The notes below the pieces were generated by a model. The model saw only the letters and a program-made list of their open reading frames with translations, had not been told where the DNA came from and ran no database searches. From positions 1 to 58,139 of the forward strand of contig JAFTTA010000204.1 in the NCBI GenBank assembly GCA_017467015.1: a stretch of 58,139 nt of DNA, in the 5' to 3' direction. Source of the stretch: Bacteroidaceae bacterium (GTDB taxonomy: Bacteria > Bacteroidota > Bacteroidia > Bacteroidales > Bacteroidaceae). Below, one piece after another: positions 38,573 through 57,344 of this stretch. The position numbers and the translations under genes are program-made. How positions within the stretch are numbered: the first letter of the stretch is position 1; each line of letters opens with the position of its first letter.

Positions 38573-38603
38573 TAAGTGGGATATGTGAAATATCAACAGT
38601 AAT

Positions 38604-38650
38604 ACAAATCACCTCCACCGCATTTTTATTCTGTGGTGGAGGTGATTTGT
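38604..38650. terminator. Strong hairpin between convergent genes; 3' boundary of the seven-gene operon
   Basis: 16-bp perfect stem acaaatcacctccacc / ggtggaggtgatttgt with a 15-nt T-rich loop. Confidence 0.7.
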
Positions 38651-38719
38651 ATCTCCTTGCATCCATTTTTTTGTCCAGGTAACCAAAAATATAGACGTCG
38701 GATTGGATTATCAGTGTTG

Positions 38720-39139
38720 TCACTTGGATATAACTCCTTTAACGAAAATGCGAGTATAGGAGCGTGGGTCGTTGCTGTATACCGTAATGGATTTTCTGTA
38801 TCGTCCTATGGGGCGCTGTTTGGCATTGAATTCAATGTCAATGTATCCTTTCTCTCCGGGCGGAACAGCCTTTTTGCTGTATTTGGGTGTGGTGCATCCG
38901 CAACCGGTGGCAATGTGCAATATGTACAAATCTTTCTCTCCCTTATTCGTAAAAGAAAAACGATGGGTGCGCCGTGTCTCGCCCGACAAGGATATTGTAT
39001 CATATTCGTGTTCGACCTTTTCGAACACTATTTTTGCTTGCTTTATATTTTGCTGCTTTGCATCGTTGCTTCCATCATTTGCAAAAACATTATACGAAAG
39101 CAGGATGAACATTAAAGCCGATAACACTCCTTTTATCAT
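38720..39139 (-). CDS. DUF1573 domain protein (secreted); operon gene 7
   Basis: 139 aa with a signal peptide. FEKVEHEYDTI..HRFSFTNKGEKDLYI..TGCGCTTPKYSKKAVPPGEKGYIDIEF is the DUF1573 core, including the CGCT motif. Its ATG lies 2 nt after the upstream stop codon. Confidence 0.8.
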   Translation of the reverse strand: MIKGVLSALMFILLSYNVFANDGSNDAKQQNIKQAKIVFEKVEHEYDTISLSGETRRTHRFSFTNKGEKDLYILHIATGCGCTTPKYSKKAVPPGEKGYIDIEFNAKQRPIGRYRKSITVYSNDPRSYTRIFVKGVISK

Positions 39140-39141
39140 TG

Positions 39142-41523
39142 CTATAAATTAACGTCTACTACAGTGCCGCTCTCTCCACTGCTTTTGTGCTTGTCGGGTG
39201 GCAACGACAGCATTATTGTTTTTCTTTGCTCATTATCTGCTGTCTCCATGAAAGGACGTATGCTCACATCCAATATGTCTCCATCATTGACATCTACATC
39301 GGAGACGAACTTGAAGTTTAGCGTGTATCGTTTCGCTTTGTAGCGGTTTATAAACATCCATTCATTGCATAGTTCTTGCATCCCGTTACGCATGATATTA
39401 ACGACAATGCCCCATCCATCCTTTATGTGTGAAGCATACGATAAATCCACCACCACCGCAAAACCATACTCATATAACTTATGTGAAGCAGTGTCGCTTA
39501 TATATGCATTTAAATCGTCATCGGTAAAGTCGAAAGAGTTTGGTTTATATTCTTTACCAACATTCTGGTAGAATTCGACAATTTCCACTCGTGGCTCAGG
39601 CTTGCCATATTTGTGCTTGTAATCGGTGTAAAGGAAACGTGCTTTTGTCTCTGTGTTATACAAAAGAGGAATAGATATATATTCTACATCCACACTATCC
39701 TTGGGGATGTCTTGTTCGAATCTATATTCGACATTTGTTCTGGCAAACTCGTTTGCACCGATATAGAGGTCGGCGAAATGATTCTTACTATTAACCTCGT
39801 TCTTATACACTGCTAACAACGGTTGATACTTGTCCGGGTCAGGAGATACACCTAAATCCGATATTGAATATGCATATATAAGTTTTGTATAGTCCGGGTA
39901 GTCTATCTTTGTAGCGGGCATGGATGCTAATGACAATTTCGGCGCTACGGGATGTTTCTTCTCGTAAAAAGGTATTGAACCCAGTTCGGTACTTGCATCC
40001 CAGACATCCAATCCTAAAGGACTGAAGAATATCTCCAGATTTGCCGTTAAATCGCAGTAAGGCGATATTTCGCCTTCATATATTTTCCCATCCTCATCGT
40101 CTTCCTCTTCTTCATTCTCTTCCTTGTTTTCAAGGAATTTAAACTGTGCCTCACCCTTTACACCGGCAGAAAGGGTGGCGCTAATTGCAGAACCGATTGA
40201 TTCAAAAAATATCACAGATGCCTTTGCCTCTGCTTTAAATCCAATATCGAAACCTCCAGAAAGCAGAAACGTAAAGTCTGTATCCTTGTTAGGTTCTTTC
40301 TTGTTGTTTATGGGGTAGACAACATCATCTTTGATTTCGTAACCGGTAATGCTTTTTGTTGTGGTTGTCCAACATGCCGACACGGTTCCTTGTACCGATA
40401 CATTGAAAGCAATATTTATCTCGAATTGCCAACTGATGGGTACAGGTCCCGGCATTCTTATCTTTATCTTTGATGAAACAGCCTCTATTGCCTCTGATGT
40501 CATACCCTTAAGTTTAGCAGATGCCGATGTCAGTTTTTTTGCAAATTTCGAGTCTGCAAGTTTCTTCATTCGATTGCTGTTCATCGCTTTAGCAATCTTC
40601 TCATTGTTAAGGGCGGCAGTGTCCTTTTCCCAACCCACTTCCAATCCGGCATCTATGGCAAAAACCTGCTCATTAATCTCTTCGGTGGCATTATATTCAT
40701 AGTCTGTACGTGTGTCGAGGCGGCTTAATATCCTTATCCTGTTTTTGTTTTCTATTCGTACAGCGATAAATGGGGACATGTCGATGTTTTTGTCATTACA
40801 GAATTTTACCATTTTCTGTAGGTAGGCTTTCATCCTTCTCTTTATGAAATCTTTTTCTGCGATGCCACCCATGTGTACTCTGCTATCGAAACTAAAGCCA
40901 TATTCGCTCACAGAATCCTTTTCGCTGGTTACAATGGTATCGGTCTTTGCCCGTGTAAGAAAACTGCTATACTCCGATGTGCCGAAGAGCGACCAATCGT
41001 CAATGGCTTCACATTCACCTATGCTCTCCAGACTGTCGCGATAGCTTTGTGAAGGATAGAACTCACCATATTGTGGCGCAACGGATGCATCGATGTCGTA
41101 TGTCAACATCTCGTAAACGTCCTTTATATCTACTCTGGTGGTCACCACTTTGTAGAGTCCGTTGATGTTTGTCACCGACAACACCTTATTGTTTAGTCCT
41201 TCGGGGATTTTCGGGTGACAACCGCATGCAAGATATTCACCTCTTTCGGGCAGCATATCCGAAGGAATGTTGTCGAAGAAGTATATTATGGTGTCTGCCT
41301 CCACCGATGCTATGTAATCTTTCATGTTAGTGGTGACAGGTCGCACACCTTCGTTATATTTGTAGGTGGTGGTGATTACTCCGGGAATGACCTCGGTGTA
41401 TGGTTCGTCTATACCTCTCTGCTCCTCGGGTACATAATTCTCCATCTCATCCAGAACGAGTGTACAACCGCCGATTAAACAGGTGGAAAGGAATAGTATG
41501 ATGATGTAATATAATTTTCTCAT
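39142..41523 (-). CDS. 793-aa lipoprotein of unknown family; operon gene 6
   Basis: Lipobox LIGGC at aa 16-20. Beta-rich, with an acidic insert ENKEENEEEEDDEDGK. I recognise no motif. Confidence 0.8.
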   Translation of the reverse strand: MRKLYYIIILFLSTCLIGGCTLVLDEMENYVPEEQRGIDEPYTEVIPGVITTTYKYNEGVRPVTTNMKDYIASVEADTIIYFFDNIPSDMLPERGEYLACGCHPKIPEGLNNKVLSVTNINGLYKVVTTRVDIKDVYEMLTYDIDASVAPQYGEFYPSQSYRDSLESIGECEAIDDWSLFGTSEYSSFLTRAKTDTIVTSEKDSVSEYGFSFDSRVHMGGIAEKDFIKRRMKAYLQKMVKFCNDKNIDMSPFIAVRIENKNRIRILSRLDTRTDYEYNATEEINEQVFAIDAGLEVGWEKDTAALNNEKIAKAMNSNRMKKLADSKFAKKLTSASAKLKGMTSEAIEAVSSKIKIRMPGPVPISWQFEINIAFNVSVQGTVSACWTTTTKSITGYEIKDDVVYPINNKKEPNKDTDFTFLLSGGFDIGFKAEAKASVIFFESIGSAISATLSAGVKGEAQFKFLENKEENEEEEDDEDGKIYEGEISPYCDLTANLEIFFSPLGLDVWDASTELGSIPFYEKKHPVAPKLSLASMPATKIDYPDYTKLIYAYSISDLGVSPDPDKYQPLLAVYKNEVNSKNHFADLYIGANEFARTNVEYRFEQDIPKDSVDVEYISIPLLYNTETKARFLYTDYKHKYGKPEPRVEIVEFYQNVGKEYKPNSFDFTDDDLNAYISDTASHKLYEYGFAVVVDLSYASHIKDGWGIVVNIMRNGMQELCNEWMFINRYKAKRYTLNFKFVSDVDVNDGDILDVSIRPFMETADNEQRKTIMLSLPPDKHKSSGESGTVVDVNL

Positions 41524-41544
41524 TCTTATAAGTTTTACGGGTTG

Positions 41545-42234
41545 TTATGGGATGGTCAACTCGAATAAATTGCTTAATGTGCCGTGGGTCTCTCCATCGA
41601 ACTCTATACGTTGTTTGAATTGTCTCAGTTTGAATTGTTCCCTGTCGTAATAGAGGAAACGAATGCGTTCGCGGCTATTGATGTCGCTTCCGTCGTAGTC
41701 GCTCTGAATTCTGAACTCCATGTATTTCACACCTTTCCATTCGCGCCAAACACCCAAACTGCGGAACTCATTTCCTCTGAATGCACCTATCAATATGTTT
41801 TCATCAGGAGTTTCTCCGTTTATTTTCACATCGGCATAGACAACTGTTTCATAGGGAGTGTCGCCGGGACTTGTCTCCCACTTCGGCATTACATACACAT
41901 AGCATGAGTCGGTAATACCTTTGAACATTGACGAGGCTATTATGTATGTTTCGCCTTGTGCCGACGCTACAATTGTTTCATCGTTTATATAGGCTATGCT
42001 GTCGTTGTTCGACCAAAAGAAGACCTCTTTAAATTTTATGGTGTCGGGGGTGAATATAGGCAACAGTTTGAATGTGTCGTCGAGCATTACATAAACCGAG
42101 TCGTGATTAAGACACATATCATACAGCTTCAAATCATCTTCATTTATATCAATGTCAATGATTCCGCACGACACGATGAGCTGCGACATTGCAACCGTGC
42201 ATGAGAATATTAATATATGTATGAGCCTCTTCAT
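41545..42234 (-). CDS. 229-aa lipoprotein: Big_2-like domain plus the shared 'GAFxGxExR' module; operon gene 5
   Basis: Lipobox IVSC. Big_2-like segment (VYVMLDDTFKLLPIFTPD..VFFWSNNDSIAYINDETIVASAQGETYIIASS). The C-terminal ~100 aa resemble modules in the 1097-aa and 2697-aa proteins. Confidence 0.8.
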   Translation of the reverse strand: MKRLIHILIFSCTVAMSQLIVSCGIIDIDINEDDLKLYDMCLNHDSVYVMLDDTFKLLPIFTPDTIKFKEVFFWSNNDSIAYINDETIVASAQGETYIIASSMFKGITDSCYVYVMPKWETSPGDTPYETVVYADVKINGETPDENILIGAFRGNEFRSLGVWREWKGVKYMEFRIQSDYDGSDINSRERIRFLYYDREQFKLRQFKQRIEFDGETHGTLSNLFELTIP

Positions 42235-42238
42235 GATA

Positions 42239-44557
42239 TCACTTTTTTGTTTTTTTATCCTCTTTTTCTATGGGTGCGGTCACTTTGACGATATTCGAGG
42301 GCTTGCTCTCGCGTCCATCGGCAAATTGTATGGTAATGTAATATTCTGCACTCTCTCCTGGTCGCAGAAGATAGTCGTTGAACATGCGTTCGTCGGGGGC
42401 TGCCGACATAAGGAAACCGAATGTGCGCTCTTTTGACCCTTTGCGGTATATACAGAAGTACCACTCTCCTTTGTATGGTAATTTGCCATCTGTCTCCCAT
42501 GCAATTTTTGTTTCGCGTTTACGCTTGTCGTATGCTCCTGTAAGTTTTATGGGCCAAGAGAAAACAATCTCTCCTTCGAACTTAACAGAGTATACCAGAC
42601 TGAGCCCGCTCGTTATTCCTGCATACGAATAGCTCTCGATGGCATATTCGTAGCGGTTGCTGCGGTTGTATTCGGGAACATCGAAAATATTCAGAATGTT
42701 TCTTTGCTTGCGCACGGAGTCGCCATCGAATGTGGCAATATTTTTCCATACGTTGCCTTTGCCTGCCATTCGACGCTTGAGTACGTGGTGCGAAATCTGT
42801 TCCTCGTTGCTGCAAATCCATCGCATGCTTATGCCCTTTGTCTGGTCCACCCACACCGAGTCGATGTGCGCCTTTCCGGGTATTATCATGCTGGGACGCA
42901 ACACCTGTAATGGTGCGCTATATTCACCTATGTTGGTTGAGTAGTCAATAGCTCTCACCTTGTAATAGATATATTTCTGGTTTACATCCACAGCCAACGT
43001 GTCTGTAAATTCTGTCCCACGCAACAATCCTATTGTACGCTGTTTGTACTGTTCTGTGGAGTCGTTGGCAAATACCACTTCATAGTAGTCGACATCTACG
43101 CTGGGCTCGTCCCACGACAAACGTACTATACCTCTTGCATTATCCACCACTTCGCAGCGCAGGTTGGCAGGCGCGTCAGGTGCTTTTACATCAGTGATGC
43201 GTACCACCTGAGGCAGTGAATAGCTCACATTGCCCTCTGCGTCGTATGCGGCAACAACCATCTGGCTTGTTGCTATGCCTGTAACCTCTATGGTGCATTT
43301 GTTTTGTCCTGCAGGAATAAGTTCTTTGGTCAACTCACGCCATTTTACGCTGTCCTTAGGTGCGTAATAGAGGATTTTGCAGCCTGTAAAGTCGCTCTCT
43401 ATGGTGTCTTTTTCGAAATAGAATGTTGCAAAAACATCGAGCGACAAGTCGTCGGGGTTGCGACGGTCGATGACTACTTTCACAAGGTTCGCAGGACGGG
43501 GAGCATCAATGTCGGGCACCTTTACGGTGTGTATGTGCGAAGGTTGTGTGAGGTCACCGAAGGGATCGTATGCCATTACCCTGTATTCATAGGTGCCCGG
43601 CGATGGCACAACGTCGCCAATGAAATTGTCGAGTGCTTCGTTTTCGACATTTTGCATCATCATGTATGGCTTTTTGTTTACACGTGTCCATTGTGTCTCG
43701 CCTTTTCTGCGTCGCTCTATTGCATAGGTGGAGTATTTCCTGTTGTTGCTCCACCACAGACGTACGCTGTTTATGCCGGTGAGTGTGTCGCCAATCTCGG
43801 GGTCGAATTTCTCGGGGACATATTTTTTATTCTCCACCGAAGGTATGTGCCCGGCGCGGAAACTGTAAACACCGGTTGTGTCTATCACTGTGGGTCTTAC
43901 GATATACTCATATTTCTCGCCGTTTTTCACTCTATAATCGACAAAGCGCATCGCCAGGTTGTCGGCAACGTCGCGTCGCCACTCAGAGGCAAGCACTGCC
44001 ATGGCAAAGCGCATCTGCTGGTCATCGTGCACATCCATCATTGCGCCCAATGATCCTTTCCCATATTTCGATTGTTCTTGTGTAAATCCTCCGGCACTGT
44101 AAAGAGCACCCATCGCCATCACGGCAACAGAGTCGGTGGTAAGATATTGTGAACGCCATTCGGTGAGGGTTGCCGGTTTCAAACCATATGCAAGCGTGTC
44201 GACCTTGAAAATATTGCCAACCTTGTAGCGCAAAACGTTTACGCCAACTCGGTTCAGGTAGCGCCATGCTGCATAGTCGTTGGGTGCCCAACGCAGCACA
44301 ATACTATCGCCGTAGGTGCGTACAAGCAAATTTATCTGCGAAGTTTCTGCTACGCGTTCTTTCTTACCGTTTTTAAGCTCTTTTATTTCGGTGCTGTCGC
44401 TTACTTCGCCTGCCAATATCTTCTTTCTGTTTATGGTGTCGGCTGCTATGTACTCTTTTCCTGTGACATTTCCTGTGAGTGGGAGTGTCTCGGATGCCGA
44501 TACGCCGAAAAACAGCATTGTGCCTGTTATATATCCTATAATGCGTTTCATCTTCAT
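42239..44557 (-). CDS. 772-aa secreted protein of about six FN3-like modules; operon gene 4
   Basis: Signal peptide. Recurrent FN3-like signatures (SIVLRWAP, SVRLWWSN..YEYRVMAYD, IVRLSWDEP..YYKVRAIDYS, ISMRWIC..YEYAIESYS, TKIAWET..YYITIQFADG). Inter-module PDIDAPRPA and DVKAPDAPA linkers. Lys-rich tail. Confidence 0.85.
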   Translation of the reverse strand: MKMKRIIGYITGTMLFFGVSASETLPLTGNVTGKEYIAADTINRKKILAGEVSDSTEIKELKNGKKERVAETSQINLLVRTYGDSIVLRWAPNDYAAWRYLNRVGVNVLRYKVGNIFKVDTLAYGLKPATLTEWRSQYLTTDSVAVMAMGALYSAGGFTQEQSKYGKGSLGAMMDVHDDQQMRFAMAVLASEWRRDVADNLAMRFVDYRVKNGEKYEYIVRPTVIDTTGVYSFRAGHIPSVENKKYVPEKFDPEIGDTLTGINSVRLWWSNNRKYSTYAIERRRKGETQWTRVNKKPYMMMQNVENEALDNFIGDVVPSPGTYEYRVMAYDPFGDLTQPSHIHTVKVPDIDAPRPANLVKVVIDRRNPDDLSLDVFATFYFEKDTIESDFTGCKILYYAPKDSVKWRELTKELIPAGQNKCTIEVTGIATSQMVVAAYDAEGNVSYSLPQVVRITDVKAPDAPANLRCEVVDNARGIVRLSWDEPSVDVDYYEVVFANDSTEQYKQRTIGLLRGTEFTDTLAVDVNQKYIYYKVRAIDYSTNIGEYSAPLQVLRPSMIIPGKAHIDSVWVDQTKGISMRWICSNEEQISHHVLKRRMAGKGNVWKNIATFDGDSVRKQRNILNIFDVPEYNRSNRYEYAIESYSYAGITSGLSLVYSVKFEGEIVFSWPIKLTGAYDKRKRETKIAWETDGKLPYKGEWYFCIYRKGSKERTFGFLMSAAPDERMFNDYLLRPGESAEYYITIQFADGRESKPSNIVKVTAPIEKEDKKTKK

Positions 44558-44572
44558 CTGTTGCTGACGTTT

Positions 44573-47500
44573 TTATTGTTCAATCAATGGCTGGTTCAAC
44601 AAACTTCTTCCCCAAGTGTTTCCATTGCGAAGCTCACCTCCATGGTTCACCACATACTCTTTTTTGTTGAAGTCGTATGCATTTACACGGTAGCATTGCA
44701 ATATGGCTTTTGTCATCGCTTCCCGTTTACCTTTGTAGTTATATCGACAAGCAGGAACAATCTTTGTCTGCTGACCATTATAATATGTTTCGTAATCAAG
44801 TTCTCCGCCAATGAAACTATACCATATATTCTCGCACAGTTCCTCTTGAGGACGGGCGTCGTCGTCGCTGTCGAATGCATCGAAACTTGCCCACATGTTT
44901 ATTGCCTTTGCATCGCCGCTGTTACGGAACTGCGAACCCCATAGCACAGCAAACTGATAATATGGAACTTGTGCCATGGCACCATAGCTCGAAGCGAAGG
45001 TCGCGTATGTTCCTGTGCGGTTCTCTGCCCATTGCTTCACTTTGTCCACATTTGAGCCATTGTATTGGTTGCCACCAAGTTCTTGTACCTCTTGAGCATA
45101 TGACGTGCAGAGAGCGTCCATGTTTCTTGCCACTGAGTATATGGCACCAAGGCTCTCGGTAATGTTCCTATAGTTGTCGCGGGAGTTGCTTGCAGGAATA
45201 TATTCGCATATTCTCTCAAGACCATCCTGCATGTAAGAGTAGCGTGGGTCGCTCGGGACAGGCAAAGGATATTGTGCATATCTTTGCCACTGTTTCTTGT
45301 CGTAAATGGAGATGTCGCGTATCTTCGAAACTCCGTTGACAATTCCATAGGCAAGTGCTTTGCTTTTAGCGCAGAATCCTTCATACACGCCTCCATTGTC
45401 GGTGTATATTAACGATTGCGAGGTCGTTGCCATACATCCCAGACGGCTGTTGGTGAGTTTGTAGCCACCTACAAAGGCATAGTTGCTGAGGTAACTCAGA
45501 TATATGTATGGGTCGTTCAGACGCAACATTTCACCCTTGTCGTTCTTGGGGCATGAGTATAGTGACAGGGTAATGTCGTCCCAATTGTCAGGGTCTTTGT
45601 AGTCAAATTCCACCTCTTCTATACACGCACCGATGAAGGGCTTTTCATACTCAAGGTTTATTCTTGAACCATCAGCAAGTTTATATCCTGTGCGCCAATT
45701 GCCGTCAACCGCTTTCAGTTCCATATGTGCAAGTGTGGTGGTGTCTACCACTATCACGTTCTTTGTTTCGTATGTGACTGTAGTCCTGCGCGACAATGTG
45801 GTGGTGCTCAATTCGGGTGTTATTGGCGACTTAATTCTTTTTACCGATGATTTCAGATAGACAAGCTTAAGCAAATATCTTTCGTTCTCCTCTATGTCGG
45901 TAAATTCCTCTTGAGGCTGCATGTTGCAAGTACTATCTGTTACAATCCATTTATTTTCGGATTTCTGTTTCAGTTCGTAGACAATATTTATATTATCTTT
46001 TGTGTTTATTAAACCGGATTTAGAGGAACCGGATTTTACCGTATATAGCTGCCACTCCAGCTTGCCTTCGTTGTAGCACTTGCCTTGCAGGTTCTTGCGA
46101 AGAGCAATGTTGGGGTTGTTTATATCTTTTATATACGCTTTCTGTATGCTGCTCTCTGTTTTCAGCTTGTTGAAGTACGATGGGTAGGCGATGGCAACAT
46201 ACTCCTCAAGGTTGGGGCAATCTTCAATTGCTTCCTCATCCTTTGTGCAGAAGTAGTACTCTTTTTCCTGGTACCAAGGAACACGCTTGTATTCGTGTGC
46301 TTCTTCGTCCCACTTCAACGGGTCGTCTTCTATACCATCGTATAGCTCCATTGCATATCCACCTACAATAAGCTTGTAGTAACAGCCGGGGTTCAGCTCT
46401 TTTATGTTCATTATATGCTCTGTACGCTCCGATCTCTTCAGCGCAAAAATACGTGTCGTTGGGTTCTCATCATCTTCGCTCTTGTATTCAATCAGTGAAA
46501 CAAATGGCATTGCATGGAACACAAATGTGCGGCTGGCTTGTGCTTTGAGATTTTCTTTGTCTCCTTCATAGTCGTGGGCGAGGATGTTTAGCTCTGTCTC
46601 GTCCAAAACTCTGAAATGTTCATCGACTGTAGCCTGTGTGTAGAATTTGGGCAACGATGCTATTTCGGAGTTAATGGCATTGTCTTTGTTCCAACCATTG
46701 CTCTTTATTGTATCGCCTATCGAGCAGTCGCCCAGCAGTTCGAAATTGTCGAGCGCATTTCCATAGAATACATCGCAGACATCGCCACATTCAAACTCGA
46801 ATTTGCGGTTTATAGATACCAATCCCGAGAGCAATCTCAGTTTTACGCGTGCAGCTCCTGTGAAGTATGTGGGGTTGGGACCACCCATGCGCAGTACACC
46901 ACCGATACCTGCGTCGAGTATGTCGAGACGTGTATCCCAGAATCCCAAGTCAATCTTCAATCCAAATTTTGCATATAGGTAGGCATACAGTTGTCCTTCG
47001 CCGTACCAACCGTTGTATCCGGGTGTGCGGCTTATATTCATACAGCTTGCGTTGGAGAGGTGTCGCAATGACATGTCGAAGCCGGCAATGGCTCCCATTT
47101 CGCCATAGAATAGTCCGAGGTCTACGTCAACATATCCCCACATCGATGCACCAAGCATCAAACCGCCGTTAACCTGTGCTTTGAAGTTGGCAAGTGCCTC
47201 TGTACGTGCTTTGTTGGCTTTTGACATGTCGTCGCTCTGCACACCCGACCCTTTTGTCGAGCCATCGAGGAATTGCTGTATCTTTTCGGGGATGGGTGGT
47301 AGCTCGCCGTCGCCGGGAAGTTCGTTTCCTAAGCAGAGATATGCATTTGCACCGATGTTCACCGATACTATCGGCGATTTAAAATCAATCCATGTAAATG
47401 TACAACGTTTGTCCTCAGCCGGTTCTCCTATGTACACATGCCATTTTGCCTTTGGCAGTTCCTTGCCTTCTGCTTTTGTGGTCACTTTAAAATCAAGTTG

Positions 47501-50500: not shown

Positions 50501-51982
50501 GGCTATGGCAAAATCGACAATGTTCTGGTCGCCGGTGAACGCTACCGACTTGCCGTTCACGCACTCGGGCACAATGCGCAATACCATGTAGTCGCCATCT
50601 TTTGTTATGTTCTTAAGGCTGTCCCATGGTATGCTGTCGCTTAGTTGTGTGCTGTGTTCATCGAAATATTTTGTGTATATGGGCTTGCCTTGCAGTGTTG
50701 CCTCTTTGTCGGCAGTGCCGCCGTTGTTGAAGAGCTCCAGTTTGTAGGCAAATTTAAGCGTGTCGGCACGCTGACCCTCGCCGCCAATGAAAAAGACATT
50801 GTCCCACGACATTTTCAGAGGTTTGCTCATCAGATGTTTGCGAGCTGCTATTGAAAGGAATGTGGGTGATGTTATCTTGGGGTTGCGGAATGTATAGAGC
50901 GAGTCGGCGCAGATGCTGTCCGTGACATCTACGTTACCAAGCAGTTTGAAATATCCTTTGCCGCTGTCGTCATCATCGCTGCTACTGCCGCCGCCGGTCT
51001 TGTTGTTGTCGTCGTCATCGTCATTATCATCGTCATCATTGCCTTTGCTTGTCTTTATGCGGAACTGACGGTAGTTGCTCTTGCCGTTGTTTTCGATTTG
51101 CACGTAGCTCATGGCAGCATTCTTGCTGCTCTTGGCAGTAACACAGGCAACGTATGTCTTGTCGGCGTAGAATTTATTTGTTATGATGTTTGTGGGTATA
51201 ACACATGAAGGGACAACCAATGATGTTGCCTGAAAAGCTATGGGGTTGTTGTCCATTGCGTAGTCGGGCTGTTGTCCGGGTGTCAACTCCACAACCTTGA
51301 AGTCGTATGTGTAGGAACTGAAGTCCGATGCACAAGGGATGACCGGTGCGCTCCATGTGAATTGGGCAAAAAGAGGGTCGAGGTCGGCTATTTCGCTATT
51401 CTCAGTGCCAATGAGCATGGGGGTGAGTATTTGCGGCGCTTGTGCATTGTAGCATACTCTAAAAGTGGCAATACCACCGGCCGGGTTACTCATTGCCAAT
51501 GGGTTGGTGGCGGGTGTCTCGTTCCATTTGTAGGCGTTGATGTGTATCTTGTAGTATCCCTCGGGCAGCAAACCGAATGAGCCGCTCTCGTAGTCGGAGA
51601 AAAGGTTTACCGGGCAGCTTATTTCGTTAGCCGGTATATGGTTGAACAGTTTCTTCATCTCCACCGTTGTCAACTGATATGTAGAGTTAGGTTGTATGGT
51701 GAAGGGTGTCTTTGGTTGGCGCTTGGGTGGGGTAGTAATAGAAAGGTCCGATGCCGGCGCGGTCTGCTCCATGTGCAGAGCAAGATATACCTGTTGTGCT
51801 TCGGCACCGGTGTTTGTAAGTGATATGTTGAAATATTTTCCCGGGTCGTTTATGTAGAGAAGCACCTGTGGTGGCAACACCTGCTGCACGGGAGTGACAT
51901 TGACCACAATCTCTTGTGCTACGATGCTGATGCTGCATAGTAGTGCTATAAGAAGTGTCGCAATGAATTTATATATTCTCAT
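44573..51982 (-). CDS. 2469-aa secreted giant protein of unknown family, no T9SS CTD; operon gene 3
   Basis: ATG at 51982. Signal peptide MRIYKFIATLLIALLCSISIVAQ. N-terminal Ig-like modules, a poly-Asp/Asn linker, then a long beta-rich body with a Lys/Glu/Asp-rich linker. The C-terminus (..GNTWGRSLLNQPLIEQ) does not resemble a CTD. Confidence 0.88.
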   Translation of the reverse strand: MRIYKFIATLLIALLCSISIVAQEIVVNVTPVQQVLPPQVLLYINDPGKYFNISLTNTGAEAQQVYLALHMEQTAPASDLSITTPPKRQPKTPFTIQPNSTYQLTTVEMKKLFNHIPANEISCPVNLFSDYESGSFGLLPEGYYKIHINAYKWNETPATNPLAMSNPAGGIATFRVCYNAQAPQILTPMLIGTENSEIADLDPLFAQFTWSAPVIPCASDFSSYTYDFKVVELTPGQQPDYAMDNNPIAFQATSLVVPSCVIPTNIITNKFYADKTYVACVTAKSSKNAAMSYVQIENNGKSNYRQFRIKTSKGNDDDDNDDDDDNNKTGGGSSSDDDDSGKGYFKLLGNVDVTDSICADSLYTFRNPKITSPTFLSIAARKHLMSKPLKMSWDNVFFIGGEGQRADTLKFAYKLELFNNGGTADKEATLQGKPIYTKYFDEHSTQLSDSIPWDSLKNITKDGDYMVLRIVPECVNGKSVAFTGDQNIVDFAIAEQLSRKYFECSNMVEISNKEPIKAKADELKGKTISIGEYQLTLDDISSASENTWKGKGRIEWNPMGTTVMVCVKFSDLKINSDYAVYEGTATTYAESSIGDSQVVDSLFSDWGIDNLIADTGIPYAEYLQSSATGAVKDLAKKIDISKYYSYVKKGGVVCDLIGKGDVDELYFPVALPKEINSTPVDIQISSMKFSAEYATMDLIGEFTLPGSNYLKNDILIFGAPRLCVSPDKIIPEGGTLALLSDFTILDPKSSYEMTFNAPENVLKPNDGCYIAWKDYSLELLGLDVEMKIPGLKKEVAGKVTDEMPVLKIKTSIGSWDDWMVDQVTIDPFQAEDMPGWTFTAEDIVYDHSSYRNSTHMGKFPDAYDKEKSLTVGDIDSWQGLYIKKVGVKMPEALEFGESSDKRCSISAEEMFIDKSGATLMVGAKNILSATTGKAGGWSFSLDKVNLEFIQNNFNYCNFSGKFDVPLVEGTVGYECRIINLGDSTKSKAGDYAYIFKTQQIDNINFDFILAEADIDKNLTYLLLEAEPEGEKLKTKVELLMGGTLTIGGTDYLQDKVNDLGLSFSIPGIHFAKMRIANCDLWESKYEKELQNGKDNAEILMELCKNKQFKVGDNFYFNSGDWSLASRPESDDQAFTQNSEETLYATHGPSPYAPARAEEKKSVASQSLGPFNFSLDDYKFDFEGTGMKLYLEGTVKLIEGIDLSATAGLSIKSKITGISGEIDFSKIGIEYDGLEFNKAAFNSSFAGMTLKGELNVASGGDARGKGYSGSLKFTMPGDLFTVDANGGYFELEDYTWGYFNILLGSSAGVRFDPVVLNEIKGGFYFNCVKKSDTEATPKKGIIGVIAGMKLSTSAGENTLNGSFEMTVVYDNKNDRLSTFIFTGGIKVIGGLVDSKASIVYQHDESDEYFSLNITVDTGIDGVSDIIGEEQLGDFESKLKELNSEAESIVTGVTAGLSDFADASDSEADSDTKKEAEKKKEEAQKSTSMKVGGASIQLDFKVTTKAEGKELPKAKWHVYIGEPAEDKRCTFTWIDFKSPIVSVNIGANAYLCLGNELPGDGELPPIPEKIQQFLDGSTKGSGVQSDDMSKANKARTEALANFKAQVNGGLMLGASMWGYVDVDLGLFYGEMGAIAGFDMSLRHLSNASCMNISRTPGYNGWYGEGQLYAYLYAKFGLKIDLGFWDTRLDILDAGIGGVLRMGGPNPTYFTGAARVKLRLLSGLVSINRKFEFECGDVCDVFYGNALDNFELLGDCSIGDTIKSNGWNKDNAINSEIASLPKFYTQATVDEHFRVLDETELNILAHDYEGDKENLKAQASRTFVFHAMPFVSLIEYKSEDDENPTTRIFALKRSERTEHIMNIKELNPGCYYKLIVGGYAMELYDGIEDDPLKWDEEAHEYKRVPWYQEKEYYFCTKDEEAIEDCPNLEEYVAIAYPSYFNKLKTESSIQKAYIKDINNPNIALRKNLQGKCYNEGKLEWQLYTVKSGSSKSGLINTKDNINIVYELKQKSENKWIVTDSTCNMQPQEEFTDIEENERYLLKLVYLKSSVKRIKSPITPELSTTTLSRRTTVTYETKNVIVVDTTTLAHMELKAVDGNWRTGYKLADGSRINLEYEKPFIGACIEEVEFDYKDPDNWDDITLSLYSCPKNDKGEMLRLNDPYIYLSYLSNYAFVGGYKLTNSRLGCMATTSQSLIYTDNGGVYEGFCAKSKALAYGIVNGVSKIRDISIYDKKQWQRYAQYPLPVPSDPRYSYMQDGLERICEYIPASNSRDNYRNITESLGAIYSVARNMDALCTSYAQEVQELGGNQYNGSNVDKVKQWAENRTGTYATFASSYGAMAQVPYYQFAVLWGSQFRNSGDAKAINMWASFDAFDSDDDARPQEELCENIWYSFIGGELDYETYYNGQQTKIVPACRYNYKGKREAMTKAILQCYRVNAYDFNKKEYVVNHGGELRNGNTWGRSLLNQPLIEQ
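50962..51043 (-). repeat. GAY/AAY trinucleotide-rich tract encoding NDDDDNDDDDDNNKTGGGSSSDDDDS
   Basis: Runs of gtc/atc/gtt triplets on the plus strand, inside the 2469-aa CDS. Confidence 0.9.
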
Positions 51983-52033
51983 ACCTGTTTCTCTTTTTTA
52001 CTATAGTGTGTATAATCCAAATCCCCGCCTTAT

Positions 52034-53749
52034 TTACAACGCGGCTCTTTCCTTGCTTTTCTTTTTTATGCTGAACAGACTGAATGTGTAGAGATAATTC
52101 AGACTGATGGTGGTGTCGGTACAGTCGAGTCCGCTGCGTGTTTGCGAAATGTTTACATCGCCATATTTACTGAACCCTGCCATTGCCGAGAATACATGTA
52201 CTTTTTTATATGTGTAGCTTGCCGATAGGTCGGTTGCGAGCGACAGGCTTTTCGATGTGTATCTCATTTCGTTGTAGCATAGCGACAGACTAGCCGACAG
52301 GTTCAGACTGTTGTCTTTCAGGAACGAGCGTGATGCCGACAGTGAGGCTACATCGCTTATGTATTCCGACCTGTATCCTGCGGATTGTTGATGGCTGTAA
52401 GTGATTGTGAAGTCTGTGACCCAGGGCTTCACGTCTATGTTGTATGAGCAACCGATGGCTTTGGTCTTTACATCGCCTATGCCGGTTGCGTATTTGTTCA
52501 GGTCTTCGTTCTTTGAGTAGTTCAGCGACAGGCTTGCATTGTGTCCCAGATTGTCGGTTTCGTACATGAATGAGGGTGTGAGGCTTATTCCCGACATCAG
52601 ACGCTTTATCTTTATGCTGTCGTTTATGTGCATTGTTCCGTCGCGCTGTGTCTGCAGGTAGCCGTTATAGGATGCGCTGAGGTTGAAATAATCGTTTATG
52701 CGGGTCGATGCACTGAGGGCATATATGTAGCCGCAGGTGGTGTACATCTGTTCTCCCGAGAGGTTGTCCTCCTGCCCCGAGAATATTGCCGAAAGGGCTA
52801 TCCTTTTAAACAGGAAGGTGTTTACCGACACAGCAAGGCTGTGATAGTTGTTTGATATGTGGTAGGTACCCAATGATGTGTAGTCGGGTTGTATCATTCT
52901 GTAGCTGAGGCTTGCATTGAAGCCGGGCAGCATGAAGTTTGCGTTCACGTCGCCGGCAAAGCGCACGAGTGAACTGTATCGTGTGTCGAATACTTTGTCA
53001 AATGATGTGGAGGTGGCTATTTTTTCGGCTTCGCTGTCTTTGTTCAGAATCGATGTGGCAGCGTTTGCCGTCAGCGAGAACCATGACAGCGGTGTCACGC
53101 AGCCTTTTACTCCGAGAACAAGGTTTTCTTGCGGTCGCACTATCTCGCGCCACTCTTGGTCGAGTGAATGTCTGCTGTCGTATGCACGTAACAGATATAC
53201 ATCTATATAATTCTTGCCACTTCCATAACCGCTTTTTATTCCCCAACCCATTCTCTTGTATTGTGGGGCGCGGGCAAACGGGTCTGTGGGGTCGTCGTTA
53301 ATGGCGTTGCGCAGTCGTCCGTAGAATGCTCCGGCGCGCCATTTGTCGTCGTTATACTCTATGCCTACTCCGTTGAACGACATGTTCATCACATAGTTGC
53401 TCATGGATATGTTTGAAAGACCTATGTGACCTGTCCAGTTCTTATACGATGGGGTGAGGTTGAAAGATATTTTCGGATAGTTGAAGTTGAGGTTGTCGTT
53501 GCTGTAATAAAATGAGAATGGCATGTTTATGCCGAATGTACTGATGTTGAGCGTTGCATATACTGTGTTGCTCATGGGCGAAGCATATCCGTTACCTACC
53601 GATGAGTTGCGGTAGGTATTCATAGTTCCTATTGTACCCGATATTATCAATGGGTCGCTGTTGGCTATGTCAGATATGTTCTGTCCTGCCAGTGGTATAT
53701 GTAGCAGGAACAACATAGCCGTTGTTAGGCAAAGGATATGTTTGCGCAT
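52034..53749 (-). CDS. Predicted outer-membrane beta-barrel protein (~571 aa), family unknown; operon gene 2
   Basis: The ATG at 53749 gives MRKHILCLTTAMLFLLHIPLAGQ, a signal peptide. The ORF-track TTG at 53809 adds 20 non-signal residues. The whole length shows alternating hydrophobic/polar ~10-aa strands rich in Y/S/N/G (..ASLSYRMIQ.., ..LSASYNGYLQ.., ..ASLSLNYSK.., ..TISLNYLYTF..). Confidence 0.75.
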   Translation of the reverse strand: MRKHILCLTTAMLFLLHIPLAGQNISDIANSDPLIISGTIGTMNTYRNSSVGNGYASPMSNTVYATLNISTFGINMPFSFYYSNDNLNFNYPKISFNLTPSYKNWTGHIGLSNISMSNYVMNMSFNGVGIEYNDDKWRAGAFYGRLRNAINDDPTDPFARAPQYKRMGWGIKSGYGSGKNYIDVYLLRAYDSRHSLDQEWREIVRPQENLVLGVKGCVTPLSWFSLTANAATSILNKDSEAEKIATSTSFDKVFDTRYSSLVRFAGDVNANFMLPGFNASLSYRMIQPDYTSLGTYHISNNYHSLAVSVNTFLFKRIALSAIFSGQEDNLSGEQMYTTCGYIYALSASTRINDYFNLSASYNGYLQTQRDGTMHINDSIKIKRLMSGISLTPSFMYETDNLGHNASLSLNYSKNEDLNKYATGIGDVKTKAIGCSYNIDVKPWVTDFTITYSHQQSAGYRSEYISDVASLSASRSFLKDNSLNLSASLSLCYNEMRYTSKSLSLATDLSASYTYKKVHVFSAMAGFSKYGDVNISQTRSGLDCTDTTISLNYLYTFSLFSIKKKSKERAAL

Positions 53750-53778
53750 ATTTTTTCTATGGTTTATAGAAACATAGT

Positions 53779-53810
53779 ATTGCAGTACCGGACTACTCCG
53801 GTACTGCAAT
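53779..53810 (-). promoter_or_regulatory. Perfect 13-bp stem-loop between operon genes 1 and 2
   Basis: attgcagtaccgg-actact-ccggtactgcaat starts 6 nt after the gene-1 stop codon (TAA at 53817-53819 on the minus strand). No U tract follows it on the minus strand. Confidence 0.8.
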
Positions 53811-53816
53811 GTTTGG

Positions 53817-56800
53817 TTACTTTTTCACTTTCTTGGTTACAATGGTGTCGCCCTGACGAATTTTGAGTATGTAGATACCCTCACTCATCTCAGTAACACG
53901 ACGGCCTTTCATGTCGTATATTGCTACTATGGCTGCTTCATCAATCGTGTTGATGTCGTTGATGTCGGTTGTGCCCAATACGGCGCCCATATCTATAGGT
54001 TCTTTGTATGAGCCGACCATTTCGGCAAATGCCACCTCTGCCTCTACCGCGTAGTACTCTTTGGTCCATTTGTTGTAGAGTCGGAATGTTACCTGCTCAC
54101 CGGCAGTTCCTGAGGCTGTTACATATACACGACCATTGATTATTTTACCTTCGCCACGACAATCGTCGCCTACGAATGCACCGATAGAATAGTCGTCGGC
54201 ATCTTCAATGTCCATTTTGCCTATTATTGCCATGGTGTTTGCGAAGCGGCTTGCATCGTACATCCACACTGTATCTCTGTTGCCACGGATGGCGGCAAGG
54301 GTCGACTTTGTGCCTTGAGGAAGTGTGAATCTTCCGGGCATCTCCAACTCAATTGTCTCTTCGCTGTTGGAGTATATCAGATATCCCTCATAGGGGTTAA
54401 GCTCGGTGAGTGAACCTTCCCATGTGCCTTCCGATGTAACCATTGCAAAACCTCTCGATTGCGACAGGATGATGTCGCCCTCGCTCAGTTTAGATGCATC
54501 GAAGATATCGGCAACGGCATATTTGTATTCATAGGGGTATGAAACCCAGTTCCAGCCTTTTTCAAGGATTTTGCTTTCAATGTCGCCATTCTCGCTGAAT
54601 GACATCTCGCCGGCGAGGTCGAGTGTGAAGCTTGTTTTGGCATTCAGCTTGTATGCTTCACGATGGTCCATGTTCTCGAGTGTGCCGAAGAAGCCCCATA
54701 GCGGGTCGTTGTAAACAAGATCCAACTTGCTACGCACCTCTTGTATCTCGTTGGAATAGTTATGGAGCCCGTAGAAGTATGAAGCAACGAATGATATCCA
54801 GTTCCAGCCGCTTGCAACCTCCATTCTTTCTGCAATGGTAGTATATGTTGTGGCTTGGAGCTGCTCTGAATCGCCCTGCTCCGATGTGTCGTAGTTGGCT
54901 TCTATGTTCACTGTCGACCACAGACAATTTGCTTTGATGCTGTATGTTTCCATGCCGTCAGCAGTGGTAACGTGCTCAAATGAAATAACGTCCCATCCGT
55001 CGGGGAATATTTCGCTCTCCGCAACGCCGATGTTCAGCATCTCGGGGTCGAAGTCGGCATCAGTGGGGTAGTAGGCAATGTCGAAGTTAACGGGTGTTCC
55101 GTCGTTGTACAATTGCTCACCCAGCATGTCGGGCATTGCAATGCCTGTAACCTTCTTCTTCGCAGTGACAACGCATGTTGCAGTTACTTCGGGGTTCGAC
55201 TCGCTTGTGAATGTAATTGTCGCTGTTCCCTTGCCGACAACGCTAAATACATGATTGTCGTTCACCGTTACAACCTCTTCGTTGTCCGATGCAATGATGA
55301 TATTCCCGTTGGTTGCATCCTCGGGCACAATGGTTGCTGTTATTGTGAAATCAGTGGTGTTGCCCTCGCTGAACCATACGGTCTTTTCTGTCTCTGAGAG
55401 TTCAATGGCTGTTACGTCTGTTGTGATGTTCAGTGACACATAGTCGTTGAACTGCTCGTCGGCGGTTACACATAGTCTCACCTGGTCAACAGGCTTCTCA
55501 ACTATCTTAAAGATGTATGTAAGCACGTTGTTCTCGATAGTTGATGAGATAACTTCCACCATGGGAGATTGTGCAATGTCCATGCCATCGGAATTCAATA
55601 TCGACATGCTGAATGTGTTATAGTCTGCGTCCTCGGGGTTCAATCTTGCAATGGCTGTAACCTCGCGTCCCAATGAGATGTTTACCACAGGTTCTGTCAC
55701 ACTGACACTTGGTATTTCAACACCGTTTACAGATATAAACTCAACGCTCTCGATTTTTCGTTTTACTGTTATTGTGAATTCTACTTTCTTAGAATTGTCG
55801 TATAACGATTCGTATGTGATGGTTGCTGTTCCACATTTCAGAGGAACTGCTATATGTTCTATGCCGGCTTCGCCTACGATTTCATTAATCTCGATAATTT
55901 CGGGGTCGCTGCTTGTAACGGTATATTGTTCATGCGACTCTATGTCTATAACGGGGTTGCCATTTGCATCTTTTATCCAATCGAATGTGGGTGTCGGCAA
56001 GGTGAGTCGATTGTCCATGTACAGCTCGGCGCTTGCCTCGGGCAATGTGATACCATTTAGAGCTGAGACTACAGTTATTGTGAATGTGGTTGACACATTC
56101 TCATTGTCGACAGCTGTGGCAGTGATGGTTGTCTGACCGATGCGGGCGGGCATGAGCTCTCCGTCTACAACAGATACTACAAATTGGTTCTCTGTGGTGA
56201 ATGTTACCCCCGGAGTGGTAGGTTGGCTCTCTCCGTTGTTATATACTATATTGGGTGTTATCTTAAAAGTTCCTAAGTAGGTGCTTATATCTTCAATGGC
56301 TATGCTCTCAACGTTGATGTATTTGGGCTCAACTTTAGCATACATCTCCTTGAAAAAGTCATTATTTGCACCAATATGGTAATAACCAATAAGTTCGAAC
56401 AGATATTCGCCACTCTCGTCAGAGTAGGTGGAAGTGCCGTTAGCCTGCACATAATCCACTCCATCGATGTTTACCTTTTCGACAATGGTTCCCTTCTGAC
56501 CTTCGATGATGAATTCACCATCCTCTTCGGGGGTTGTGGCCTCTTGGCCATCAATATCGAGAAGTCTGACACTGAAGTCGCTCATGGGTTTTTTGTCGCC
56601 CACTTCCATCACAAATCTGTCCGTTTCCACCTCGTCAATGTACAATTTTACCTCGTTGATAGGCTTAAAGGCAAGAGTGAAATAGTTTGATGGTTCTACA
56701 AGTGTCTTGTCACCGCTCCACTTTATCTCTGTTTGGAAAGTGCCATCACTTGTTGTGTACATTGGAGTTAAGGGGTAGGTCAGTCCACGATTATTGTCGT

Positions 56801-57110
56801 AGAGTTTGAAACTAATGACTTTATCATCGTCATCATCGCTTACACCTCCTATACGCAGAGTGTACAAACGTAATTTGTTTTCTCCAACCACATCATATTG
56901 GGTGGTGAGGGCTCGAATTTCTCCATCGATGAAAGCTGCAATAGCGGGGGCTTCGTTGCTTAGATATAGTTCCTCATTATTGCCACAGTCTACAACGGCA
57001 TAAACAACGGTTTCCGTCTGATATTTTCCGGAGGGGTCGTTCCAGCCACTTTGTGCCCATGAAGTCGTCCCGACAAGCATAAGCATGATTGAAAGTAGTA
57101 ATTTTTTCAC
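53817..57110 (-). CDS. 1097-aa Big_2-rich surface protein, T9SS cargo; operon gene 1
   Basis: A GTG start at 57110 gives MKKLLLSIMLMLVGTTSWAQ. Several Big_2-like modules (e.g. VTFTTENQFVVSVVDGELMPARIGQTTITATAV, YTVTSSDPEIIEINE..GTATITYES, FTITATIVPEDATNGNIIIASDNEEVVTV..GKGTATITFTS). Two GWNW modules and a GAFVGDDCRG module. CTD IYDMKGRRV..GIYILKIRQGDTIVTKKVKK. Confidence 0.88.
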   Translation of the reverse strand: MKKLLLSIMLMLVGTTSWAQSGWNDPSGKYQTETVVYAVVDCGNNEELYLSNEAPAIAAFIDGEIRALTTQYDVVGENKLRLYTLRIGGVSDDDDDKVISFKLYDNNRGLTYPLTPMYTTSDGTFQTEIKWSGDKTLVEPSNYFTLAFKPINEVKLYIDEVETDRFVMEVGDKKPMSDFSVRLLDIDGQEATTPEEDGEFIIEGQKGTIVEKVNIDGVDYVQANGTSTYSDESGEYLFELIGYYHIGANNDFFKEMYAKVEPKYINVESIAIEDISTYLGTFKITPNIVYNNGESQPTTPGVTFTTENQFVVSVVDGELMPARIGQTTITATAVDNENVSTTFTITVVSALNGITLPEASAELYMDNRLTLPTPTFDWIKDANGNPVIDIESHEQYTVTSSDPEIIEINEIVGEAGIEHIAVPLKCGTATITYESLYDNSKKVEFTITVKRKIESVEFISVNGVEIPSVSVTEPVVNISLGREVTAIARLNPEDADYNTFSMSILNSDGMDIAQSPMVEVISSTIENNVLTYIFKIVEKPVDQVRLCVTADEQFNDYVSLNITTDVTAIELSETEKTVWFSEGNTTDFTITATIVPEDATNGNIIIASDNEEVVTVNDNHVFSVVGKGTATITFTSESNPEVTATCVVTAKKKVTGIAMPDMLGEQLYNDGTPVNFDIAYYPTDADFDPEMLNIGVAESEIFPDGWDVISFEHVTTADGMETYSIKANCLWSTVNIEANYDTSEQGDSEQLQATTYTTIAERMEVASGWNWISFVASYFYGLHNYSNEIQEVRSKLDLVYNDPLWGFFGTLENMDHREAYKLNAKTSFTLDLAGEMSFSENGDIESKILEKGWNWVSYPYEYKYAVADIFDASKLSEGDIILSQSRGFAMVTSEGTWEGSLTELNPYEGYLIYSNSEETIELEMPGRFTLPQGTKSTLAAIRGNRDTVWMYDASRFANTMAIIGKMDIEDADDYSIGAFVGDDCRGEGKIINGRVYVTASGTAGEQVTFRLYNKWTKEYYAVEAEVAFAEMVGSYKEPIDMGAVLGTTDINDINTIDEAAIVAIYDMKGRRVTEMSEGIYILKIRQGDTIVTKKVKK

Positions 57111-57176: not shown

Positions 57177-57184
57177 CAAAATTA
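57177..57184 (-). promoter_or_regulatory. -7 box for the seven-gene operon
   Basis: TAATTTTG on the minus strand, 67 nt upstream of the GTG at 57110. Confidence 0.5.
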
Positions 57185-57255
57185 CTGGGATTAACTTATT
57201 TACCTTTTAACATCCTTAATTCCGCAACACTTTGATTTAACTTTATTTATAAGTT

Positions 57256-57280
57256 CCTGAGCAACAAAAAGTTGCTCAGG
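57256..57280. other. Perfect 10-bp hairpin in the operon/IS spacer
   Basis: cctgagcaac-aaaaa-gttgctcagg. It could be part of the IS left-end region or a transcriptional insulator. Confidence 0.6.
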
Positions 57281-57344
57281 ATTTTGCCATGTCAGAATTT
57301 TCACTTATCTTAGTGTTGCAAAAAGAAAACAAGCAAAACTCTAA

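Follow-up and report, generated by a model that had tools for sequence, protein, structure and literature searches.

A conserved three-gene envelope module of Bacteroidota with a predicted outer-membrane barrel, a giant exported protein and an FN3-like protein

On the minus strand of a 58,139-nucleotide contig from a Bacteroidaceae bacterium (JAFTTA010000204.1, assembly GCA_017467015.1; the whole stretch analysed is hereafter called the window), seven open reading frames (ORFs), designated g1 to g7, succeed one another from position 57110 down to 38720. This locus is one copy of a conserved envelope module of Bacteroidota, the invariant core of which consists of three Sec-exported proteins encoded back to back: a beta-barrel protein (g2), a giant protein of 2469 amino acids (g3) and a protein with FN3-like modules (g4). 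Judged from sequence comparisons, these three proteins represent the functional core across the phylum, with g1, g5, g6 and g7 being accessories of a Bacteroidales clade, and the barrel-giant-FN3 module, which matches no described family or system, appears new as a system. The core most likely builds a cell-surface structure, and it is proposed, with a probability of roughly 0.45, that its predicted function is that of an ATP-independent device dedicated to the export or anchoring of a giant surface protein. The original prediction, made from the sequence of the window, had described a seven-gene operon encoding a candidate undescribed envelope apparatus. This view stands, since g2, g3, g5 and g6 could not be placed in a characterised system and the gene neighbourhood is conserved. 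All seven genes were confirmed, with the core of the apparatus narrowed to three of them.

Conservation of the locus and of its three-gene core

The distribution of the module was surveyed by scanning one genome per species with the g4 alignment as query, which found 180 genomes, 80 loci being kept; scanning with g3 alone found nothing, its patterns being too specific. In all 80 kept loci g2 to g6 are colinear wherever the corresponding DNA is present, and the same five genes are colinear in five metagenome contigs, so that the conserved gene order on which the original prediction depended was indeed found. The seven-gene order is kept, between unrelated flanks, on contigs carrying g3 relatives of 35-49% identity, with orthology confirmed at each position. 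Identity to the window proteins is highest for g2 (58-67%) and g4 (42-57%), followed by g3 (35-49%), g5 (33-44%), g1 (about 30%, in the C-terminal half) and g6 (about 24%), while g7 was detected in about 28 of the 80 kept loci, that is, in about a third of them. The carriers are mostly metagenome-assembled genomes (MAGs) of rumen and gut Prevotella, Bacteroidaceae and Muribaculaceae, Hallella seregens ATCC 51272 being the sole cultured strain among the kept loci.

Several MAGs hold two or three paralogous copies of the cluster. In one of them, copies adjoin on contig JAZQOH010000044.1 (the neighbouring stretches L031 and L052), with a further copy in L082; other multi-copy sets of loci are L040/L065, L023/L053, L044/L070 and L022/L084. 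A Prevotellaceae UBA1746 locus (L006) presents, at 26899-30039, a second g1-like protein (1046 amino acids) after g6; the gene calls of this locus show no DUF1573 gene, and tblastn on the same contig (L037) gives a g7 match there, with 45% identity.

A much wider distribution emerged when the g2 profile was searched against 1.84 billion representative proteins clustered at 50% identity. The barrel family amounts to 1,887 clusters at E <= 1e-3, of which 838 also pass E <= 1e-30, with members that are mostly 555-580 amino acids long and carry no Pfam family. The named members all belong to Bacteroidota (Chitinophagaceae, Chitinophaga sp. Cy-1792, Prolixibacteraceae and Xanthomarina). In Puia sp. 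(Chitinophagaceae), a distant barrel is followed by a g3 homologue of 2,027 amino acids (hhalign probability 100%, E 1.6e-90, 26% identity over 1,489 columns) and then by a g4 homologue of 722 amino acids (E 3e-42). The Puia and Chitinophaga sp. Cy-1792 loci contain the triad only.

When metagenomes were scanned with distant barrels, at least 582 loci were retrieved, and 80 kept loci were scored with hidden Markov models (HMMs) built in this analysis. In nearly every soil or sediment locus with downstream DNA, the barrel gene is immediately followed, often with an overlap, by a large ORF bearing the g3 N-terminal domain. Where complete, this ORF encodes 1,900-2,700 amino acids, D2b and D4 often being also present; a few of the large ORFs found after distant barrels gave no g3 match. 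The third position is occupied in most sufficiently long loci by an ORF of 500-750 amino acids, with a g4-like score in about 25 of them, and in two metagenome loci the order is giant, FN3, barrel.

HMM scoring of the kept metagenome loci detected no g5- or g6-like proteins, and no type IX secretion system (T9SS) sorting domain was found among the top matches for the C-terminal tails of 47 ORFs located just upstream of distant barrels. As the triad stands alone in Chitinophaga sp. Cy-1792, and neither g5- and g6-like proteins nor T9SS tails were detected in the distant loci, g1, g5, g6 and g7 are regarded as accessories of the Bacteroidales clade. A general link of the module to the T9SS was considered and rejected on the tail count (0/47).

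A different arrangement was observed in L089 (1-18245, on a 5.6-Mb genome contig), where a T9SS-tailed giant protein of the beta-helix/NosD/Big kind, exceeding 5,500 amino acids, precedes a very distant barrel, and where the protein encoded after the barrel is FN3-rich, 2,143 amino acids long and similar to g3 only at the N-terminus. The most distant relatives, such as L089, may have a different architecture of the same system.

The core proteins and their Bacteroidales accessories

Family scans of the seven proteins yielded only Ig/FN3, DUF1573 and T9SS-tail signals. Neither Pfam nor NCBIfam gave a match at E <= 5 for g2, g3, g5 or g6, profile searches of PDB sequences returned none for g2, g3 and g6, a PADLOC scan of the seven proteins found nothing and PHROGs contributed Ig and FN3 similarities only. 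Structure prediction followed by Foldseek likewise placed none of these four proteins in a characterised system, in agreement with the initial statement that they belong to no recognisable family. CxxCH, HExxH and Walker A motifs are all absent from g1 to g7, as had been claimed for ATPase and enzyme motifs, and a literature search of open-access papers did not find a description of the module.

The g2 gene (52034-53749, minus strand) encodes 571 amino acids when read from its ATG codon; a TTG alternative would extend it to 52034-53809. The ATG at 53749 is favoured: alignments with orthologues begin at about residue 13, and the gene call in L001, a sister contig 99% identical to the window, also gives 571 amino acids. 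The strand pattern that had suggested an outer-membrane beta-barrel is matched by the AlphaFold2 model, obtained with an input of 34 sequences, which is an all-beta barrel of about 26 strands starting directly after the signal peptide (pLDDT 76.5, pTM 0.60) and has no plug, POTRA or periplasmic domain. A Foldseek search with this model gave 320 matches at E <= 1e-3, and the best 50 listed are all outer-membrane barrel proteins. The matches include the FimD/PapC ushers (E 1e-10), MtrB (with the best TMq, 0.52), LptD, SlpA and TonB-dependent transporters, at about 10% sequence identity. In addition, a YxYxF beta-signal is conserved at or near the C-terminus (alignments A3, A9 and A10). The signal peptide, the modelled barrel and the C-terminal aromatic beta-signal together indicate that g2 belongs to the general class of outer-membrane beta-barrels. 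In g2, conservation of the long loops equals that of the strands, the most conserved stretch of all being the loop at 288-301; as this is unusual for exposed loops, it suggests that they contact partner proteins rather than the environment.

The giant protein g3 (44573-51982, minus strand) was described initially as a signal-peptide protein lacking a C-terminal sorting domain, and both features were borne out, with a conserved cleavage site between A22 and Q23. Its layout comprises an N-terminal domain (1-310), an acidic linker, a beta-rich region (350-1100), an amphipathic beta-meander (about 1165-1420 and about 1486-1732) and a variable C-terminal third, with linkers at about 301-350, 1101-1150 and 1451-1500. 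Conservation is high at residues 1-1100 and 1500-1800, the N-terminal 300 residues or so being the most widely conserved part, and 13 cysteines and many glycines are invariant across relatives. The relatives of 3,100-3,900 amino acids differ by helical, low-complexity C-terminal extensions of up to 1,418 residues. For instance, P0106, P0113, P0118, P0090 and P0074 (loci L004, L005 and L006) have 580-1,418 extra C-terminal residues that are non-conserved, helical or coiled-coil-like and of low complexity, and P0056 and P0066 end in Ser/Thr-rich tails. All 203 g3 relatives listed are labelled "hypothetical".

An AlphaFold2 model of g3 residues 561-1760 (pLDDT 64, pTM 0.41) is almost wholly beta and contains about 24 strands, long and strongly amphipathic, that lie at about 1165-1420 and 1486-1732 and are joined by short turns, with one face aliphatic or glycine-rich alternating with one that is polar or tyrosine-containing. 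Foldseek listed LptD, SlpA, porins, ApoB100 and an RHS shell for this model, with TM-scores of 0.1-0.3, and the search against BFVD gave no matches. LptD was rejected as a fold match for g3, since its E-values against the PDB were significant with TM-scores of only 0.1-0.15. The g3 core can thus be described, with modest confidence, as a barrel-like beta-meander to which no fold is assigned. Two g3 relatives, P0028 and P0062, score 25-26 bits against DUF6603 (PF20248), just under the gathering threshold of 27 bits, in alignments (E about 1e-6) that cover the first 146 of the 502 profile positions and lie at about residues 1130-1294. The g3 protein of the window has no DUF6603 match in Pfam, and no mention of this family was found in the literature search of open-access papers.

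The third core protein, g4 (42239-44557, minus strand), has 772 amino acids and a signal peptide. The FN3-like modules attributed to it from the sequence were recovered as FN3 similarity in PHROGs and as weak matches to titin FN3 domains in a profile search of the PDB. The sequence D(S/T)(A/I/L/V/M/T) is the general O-glycosylation motif of Bacteroidota, and g4 contains 13 such sequons as compared with 2.3 expected, a number reached in none of 2,000 shuffled sequences. The 80 g4 orthologues carry 10-21 sequons, and in the five orthologues that were aligned eight positions are kept throughout, which amounts to roughly one for each FN3 module. This enrichment supports the placement of g4 outside the cytoplasm.

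Among the accessories, g1 (53817-57110, minus strand; 1097 amino acids, GTG start) has a signal peptide and had been presented as a Big_2-rich cargo of the T9SS. The T9SS part of this description holds: the isolated 58-residue C-terminal tail passes the type A model TIGR04183 with 28.2 bits (cut-off 23), which the scan of the whole protein had missed, and reaches 22.7 bits against a cut-off of 27 for the Pfam Por_Secre_tail family. The tail is short, and all g1 orthologues end in YDxxGRR...GvYI.nGkK, with three of five orthologue tails scoring below the T9SS threshold. The richness in Big_2 was confirmed only partly, with one Ig-like Big_2 domain passing in Pfam and two or three modules being weakly similar. 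Only the C-terminal half of g1 (about 400 amino acids) is conserved, at about 30% identity, and a single-sequence search of the PDB returned nothing.

The two proteins designated as lipoproteins both have invariant lipobox cysteines, as expected. In g5 (41545-42234, minus strand; 229 amino acids), the invariant Cys23 is accompanied by a Big_2-like Ig domain and by a C-terminal domain that recurs at both ends of g1, and in g6 (39142-41523, minus strand; 793 amino acids) the invariant Cys20 is followed by acidic residues. The first 130 residues or so of g6 are conserved, the remainder being hypervariable (18% column identity). The last gene, g7 (38720-39139, minus strand), encodes an Ig-like protein of 139 amino acids with a signal peptide, whose assignment to DUF1573 was firmly reproduced (PF07610, 93.1 bits against a cut-off of 26.1). 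Internal homology was sought between g6 and g3, the g3 domains and the g2 barrel, D3 and D4, and the g3 N-terminal domains and g4, in all cases with null results.

Transcription, regulation and surroundings of the cluster

The seven minus-strand ORFs are separated by 67, 51, 15, 4, 21 and 2 nucleotides, from g1-g2 to g6-g7, and both their positions and these distances agree with those reported at the outset. Since a divergent plus-strand gene lies upstream and a convergent gene for a TonB-dependent receptor downstream, the cluster is well bounded. The TAnnTTTG box noted upstream is present as TAATTTTG at 57177-57184 (minus strand), about 67 nucleotides before the g1 start codon, and is identical in L001; it is a putative -7 promoter box of the Bacteroidota type, a motif whose enrichment in the window is weak (60 occurrences versus 44 expected). 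At the other end, the strong hairpin that had been pointed out has a 19-bp stem (38601-38653, minus strand; z = -7.45 versus shuffled sequences), lies between g7 and the receptor gene and is a probable bidirectional terminator.

A second hairpin, with a perfect 14-bp stem, occupies the 67-nucleotide gap between g1 and g2, directly after the g1 stop codon (53779-53810, minus strand; z = -9.9), and is a candidate attenuator, partial terminator or 3'-stabiliser. Long-stem hairpins of comparable strength and unrelated sequence are found in 18 of 22 orthologous g1-g2 gaps of at least 59 nucleotides (L009-L079), that is, the hairpin is conserved as a structure and not as a sequence. The simplest reading is that of an attenuator or 3'-stabiliser, by which more g1 than g2-g7 would be made. 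The notion of a single seven-gene operon is upheld as regards the adjacency of g1 to g7, with the qualification that g1 is perhaps partly uncoupled in transcription.

Genes for TPR sensors, histidine kinases, response regulators or AraC/LuxR-type proteins recur beside the module, both in Bacteroidales and in distant loci, and in L001 a response-regulator/AraC gene is located 168 nucleotides upstream of g1. In the window, identity to L001 (compared stretch L001:2380-2680) breaks at about 57213, and a gene for a DDE transposase follows, with one supporting match being weak. This gene begins at 57411 and runs off the window, within what is seen as the end of an insertion sequence (IS) at 57214-58139 (plus strand). 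The identity break and the transposase gene together indicate that an IS element has inserted about 30 nucleotides upstream of the TAATTTTG box, where it may separate the cluster from the control of its regulator or provide a promoter directed outwards. The earlier remark that the operon includes no regulator accordingly holds within the seven ORFs; it does not extend to the relatives, in which a dedicated regulator adjoins the module, and in the window that regulator is displaced by the IS.

Elsewhere in the window, at 15706-31737 (plus strand), a further cluster, unrelated to the first, encodes very large surface proteins, with products of 1246 amino acids (BspA-type LRR_5), 1388 amino acids (Flg_new_2/PKD) and 2697 amino acids (cohesin-like, CARDB, MG2 and CarboxypepD_reg). 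The C-terminal 100 residues of these proteins have no Por_Secre_tail match, the first one weakly matching DUF6383. At 11781-15266 (minus strand), a protein of 1161 amino acids has a strong TMEM260-like protein O-mannosyltransferase domain (254 bits), a gene worth noting near loci rich in exported, possibly glycosylated proteins.

A possible route to the cell surface and its relation to known systems

In the mechanism proposed for the triad, the g2 barrel would be the outer-membrane socket or conduit for g3, which would dock into it, or thread through it, by means of its conserved N-terminal and central parts. The same conserved parts would also interact with g4, the presumably O-glycosylated FN3 protein serving as a strut or adaptor, and the variable C-terminal third of g3, lengthened in some relatives by about 1,000 helical residues, would be displayed at the cell surface. 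In Bacteroidales of the gut and rumen, this core would have gained the lipoproteins g5 and g6 (the latter hypervariable), the DUF1573 Ig protein g7 and the Ig-rich, T9SS-delivered g1, which shares a domain with g5. Together with the core, these four proteins would assemble into a composite structure on the surface, for instance an adhesin, a coat or a filament. Transcription would probably start at the TAATTTTG box upstream of g1, the hairpin after g1 allowing it to be made in excess over g2-g7, and expression in relatives would be tied to the adjacent TPR sensors or two-component regulators.

Several considerations weigh against this proposal. The strand count of g2 comes from one AlphaFold2 model built on a shallow alignment in which all rows are at least 58% identical to the query, and the modelled pore of 26 strands might let g3 pass or might only hold it. 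The physical link between g2 and g3 is itself a proposal. The low-confidence model of g3 could, with its amphipathic meander of 24 strands, correspond to a membrane barrel or a lipid-binding sheet rather than to a passenger, and the protein may lie at the surface, in the periplasm or embedded in the membrane. Finally, the T9SS cargo is unlinked to the module outside Bacteroidales, which limits the composite surface structure to that clade.

A stronger version of the export and anchoring proposal, rather doubtful at present, holds that the triad is an unrecognised, T9SS-independent pathway of secretion or assembly across Bacteroidota, in which a plug-less barrel of about 26 strands both exports the giant surface protein and holds it. 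If true, this would in effect add a secretion system of a new type, comprising some 1,900 diverged lineages of the barrel. In the communities of gut, rumen, soil and marine particles Bacteroidota are dominant, and their surface biology is currently explained mainly by SusCD, the T9SS, type V pili and surface lipoproteins. The module described here has thousands of diverged members in at least three classes of the phylum, is often multi-copy, has its own sensor regulators and includes two proteins, its largest, that fall in no annotated family. An export or anchoring device of this kind would represent a new route to the Bacteroidota cell surface and, as a new class, would join the candidates for adhesins, phage receptors or host-interaction factors. 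Cultured carriers of the extended type (Hallella seregens ATCC 51272) and of the minimal three-gene type (Chitinophaga sp. Cy-1792) make these ideas directly testable.

The explanation that comes closest to the preferred one, although improbable, is that g2, g3 and g4 form a static element without transport, that is, a coat anchored to the outer membrane, an S-layer-like lattice or an envelope brace. The Foldseek match to Deinococcus SlpA, a 30-strand barrel that anchors an S-layer, would fit such a role, as would the long helical extensions of some g3 relatives, the richness of g4 in glycosylation motifs and the lack of an encoded energy source. Yet sensor-regulated, multi-copy and patchily distributed loci are ill-suited to a constitutive envelope layer, and the explanation overlaps with that of an export or anchoring device, from which it differs solely on whether the barrel exports g3.

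Less probable still is a conduit for lipids, lipopolysaccharide or hydrophobic polymers, in which the amphipathic sheet of g3 would pass lipidic cargo to an LptD-like g2, in the manner of the LptD/E or AsmA/TamB bridges. The roughly 24 long and strongly amphipathic strands of the g3 core, its best Foldseek matches being to LptD, with the beta-belt of ApoB100 among the others, the strand count that g2 has in common with LptD and the fact that AsmA-like transfer needs no ATPase are all compatible with it. However, g3 attains TM-scores of only 0.1-0.15 with LptD and ApoB, none of the LptD/OstA, AsmA or DUF490 families is matched, and the signal peptide of g3 is cleavable (conserved A-Q site), leaving the protein without an inner-membrane anchor. 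Moreover, a multi-copy module with dedicated sensors is atypical of housekeeping lipid transport, and the variable C-terminal third of g3 and the hypervariable g6 point to surface exposure.

Just as unlikely as a lipid conduit is a new protein translocon, whereby g3 would form, with its central beta-region, a giant barrel of its own in the outer membrane like SprA/Sov, g2 being a partner or shuttle, and g1 or unlinked cargo the substrates. The SprA-like size of g3, the alternation of aliphatic/Gly and polar/Tyr faces, its many invariant glycines and the fact that nearly all its significant Foldseek matches are outer-membrane barrels speak in its favour, along with the T9SS-tailed proteins that adjoin the barrel in Bacteroidales and in L089. 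Against it, no SprA_N or TIGR04189 match was found, g3 has short inter-strand turns at either end and lacks a C-terminal beta-signal, and about 700 residues follow the beta-region; in addition, AlphaFold2 closes no g3 barrel (TMt <= 0.33 to porins) and the minimal triad has no obvious cargo gene. Lastly, that the seven ORFs are chance neighbours or mis-called, and so no functional unit, has next to no likelihood, for although a strong hairpin splits g1 from g2 and g7 is missing in most relatives, colinearity across 80 genomes and several classes of the phylum with differing flanks, the tight or overlapping gaps and the conservation of the products as proteins oppose it, and for g2-g6 it is refuted by the colinearity across genome and metagenome loci.

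With respect to systems from the same phylum, the original prediction had invoked the logic of the sprCDBF loci (SprB with the PorP-like SprF). The module resembles these, and SprA/Sov, in the Bacteroidota background, in having a T9SS-tailed g1 beside a barrel gene and in the SprA-like size of g3. The analogy proved weak, given that g2 has no PorP_SprF match, that the g1 tail is of type A and not of type B and that T9SS cargo is unlinked to the module outside Bacteroidales, and neither g3 nor its relatives P0028 and P0062 match SprA_N or TIGR04189. Similarity to LptD/LptE is seen in the barrel of about 26 strands, the lipoproteins encoded in the cluster and the Foldseek matches of both g2 and g3 to LptD. 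These matches have TMq values of 0.28-0.31 for g2 and about 0.1 for g3, however, no LptD, OstA or LptE family match was obtained and the lipoproteins are absent from the minimal triad. From AsmA/TamB, the giant protein differs in its cleavable signal peptide and in having no AsmA/DUF490 match and, with its low-confidence model, no AsmA-like Foldseek match. MtrCAB provides the best TM-score for g2 (MtrB, 0.52) and a precedent in which 26 strands ensheathe a protein spanning the outer membrane, which in turn contacts a lipoprotein on the cell surface, but g1 to g7 have neither a CxxCH haem motif nor sequence similarity to it.

Parallels in organisation are also offered by chaperone-usher and two-partner secretion systems. 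In the Foldseek search g2 reaches its best E-values (1e-10) with FimD and PapC, the pore of an usher is, like the modelled one, wide enough for folded Ig-like domains, and the partners are strings of Ig/FN3-like modules. A hairpin after the first, presumably abundant, gene is also known for pilus operons, which recalls the hairpin after g1. Nonetheless, g2 has no plug and no N- or C-terminal usher domains, its identity to ushers is about 10% with TMq values of 0.3-0.42, the cluster has no PapD-like chaperone or pilin-like subunits, and the Usher, PapC_N, PapC_C and PapD families of Pfam and NCBIfam gave no match in the seven proteins. In two-partner secretion (type Vb; FhaC/FHA, CdiB/CdiA), as in the module, a barrel gene directly precedes that of a giant Sec-exported protein with a most conserved N-terminal domain and a variable C-terminus, and no ATPase is involved. 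TpsB, however, is an Omp85-type barrel of 16 strands with two POTRA domains (ShlB/POTRA_2), whereas g2 is modelled with about 26 strands and no POTRA domain and has no family match at E <= 5. Unlike TpsA, g3 has no TPS/Haemagg_act domain in Pfam or in the profile search of the PDB and no beta-helix according to any profile, and the module includes a third, obligatory FN3 protein. The proposed logic of the triad is like that of two-partner or usher systems, the module being homologous to neither.

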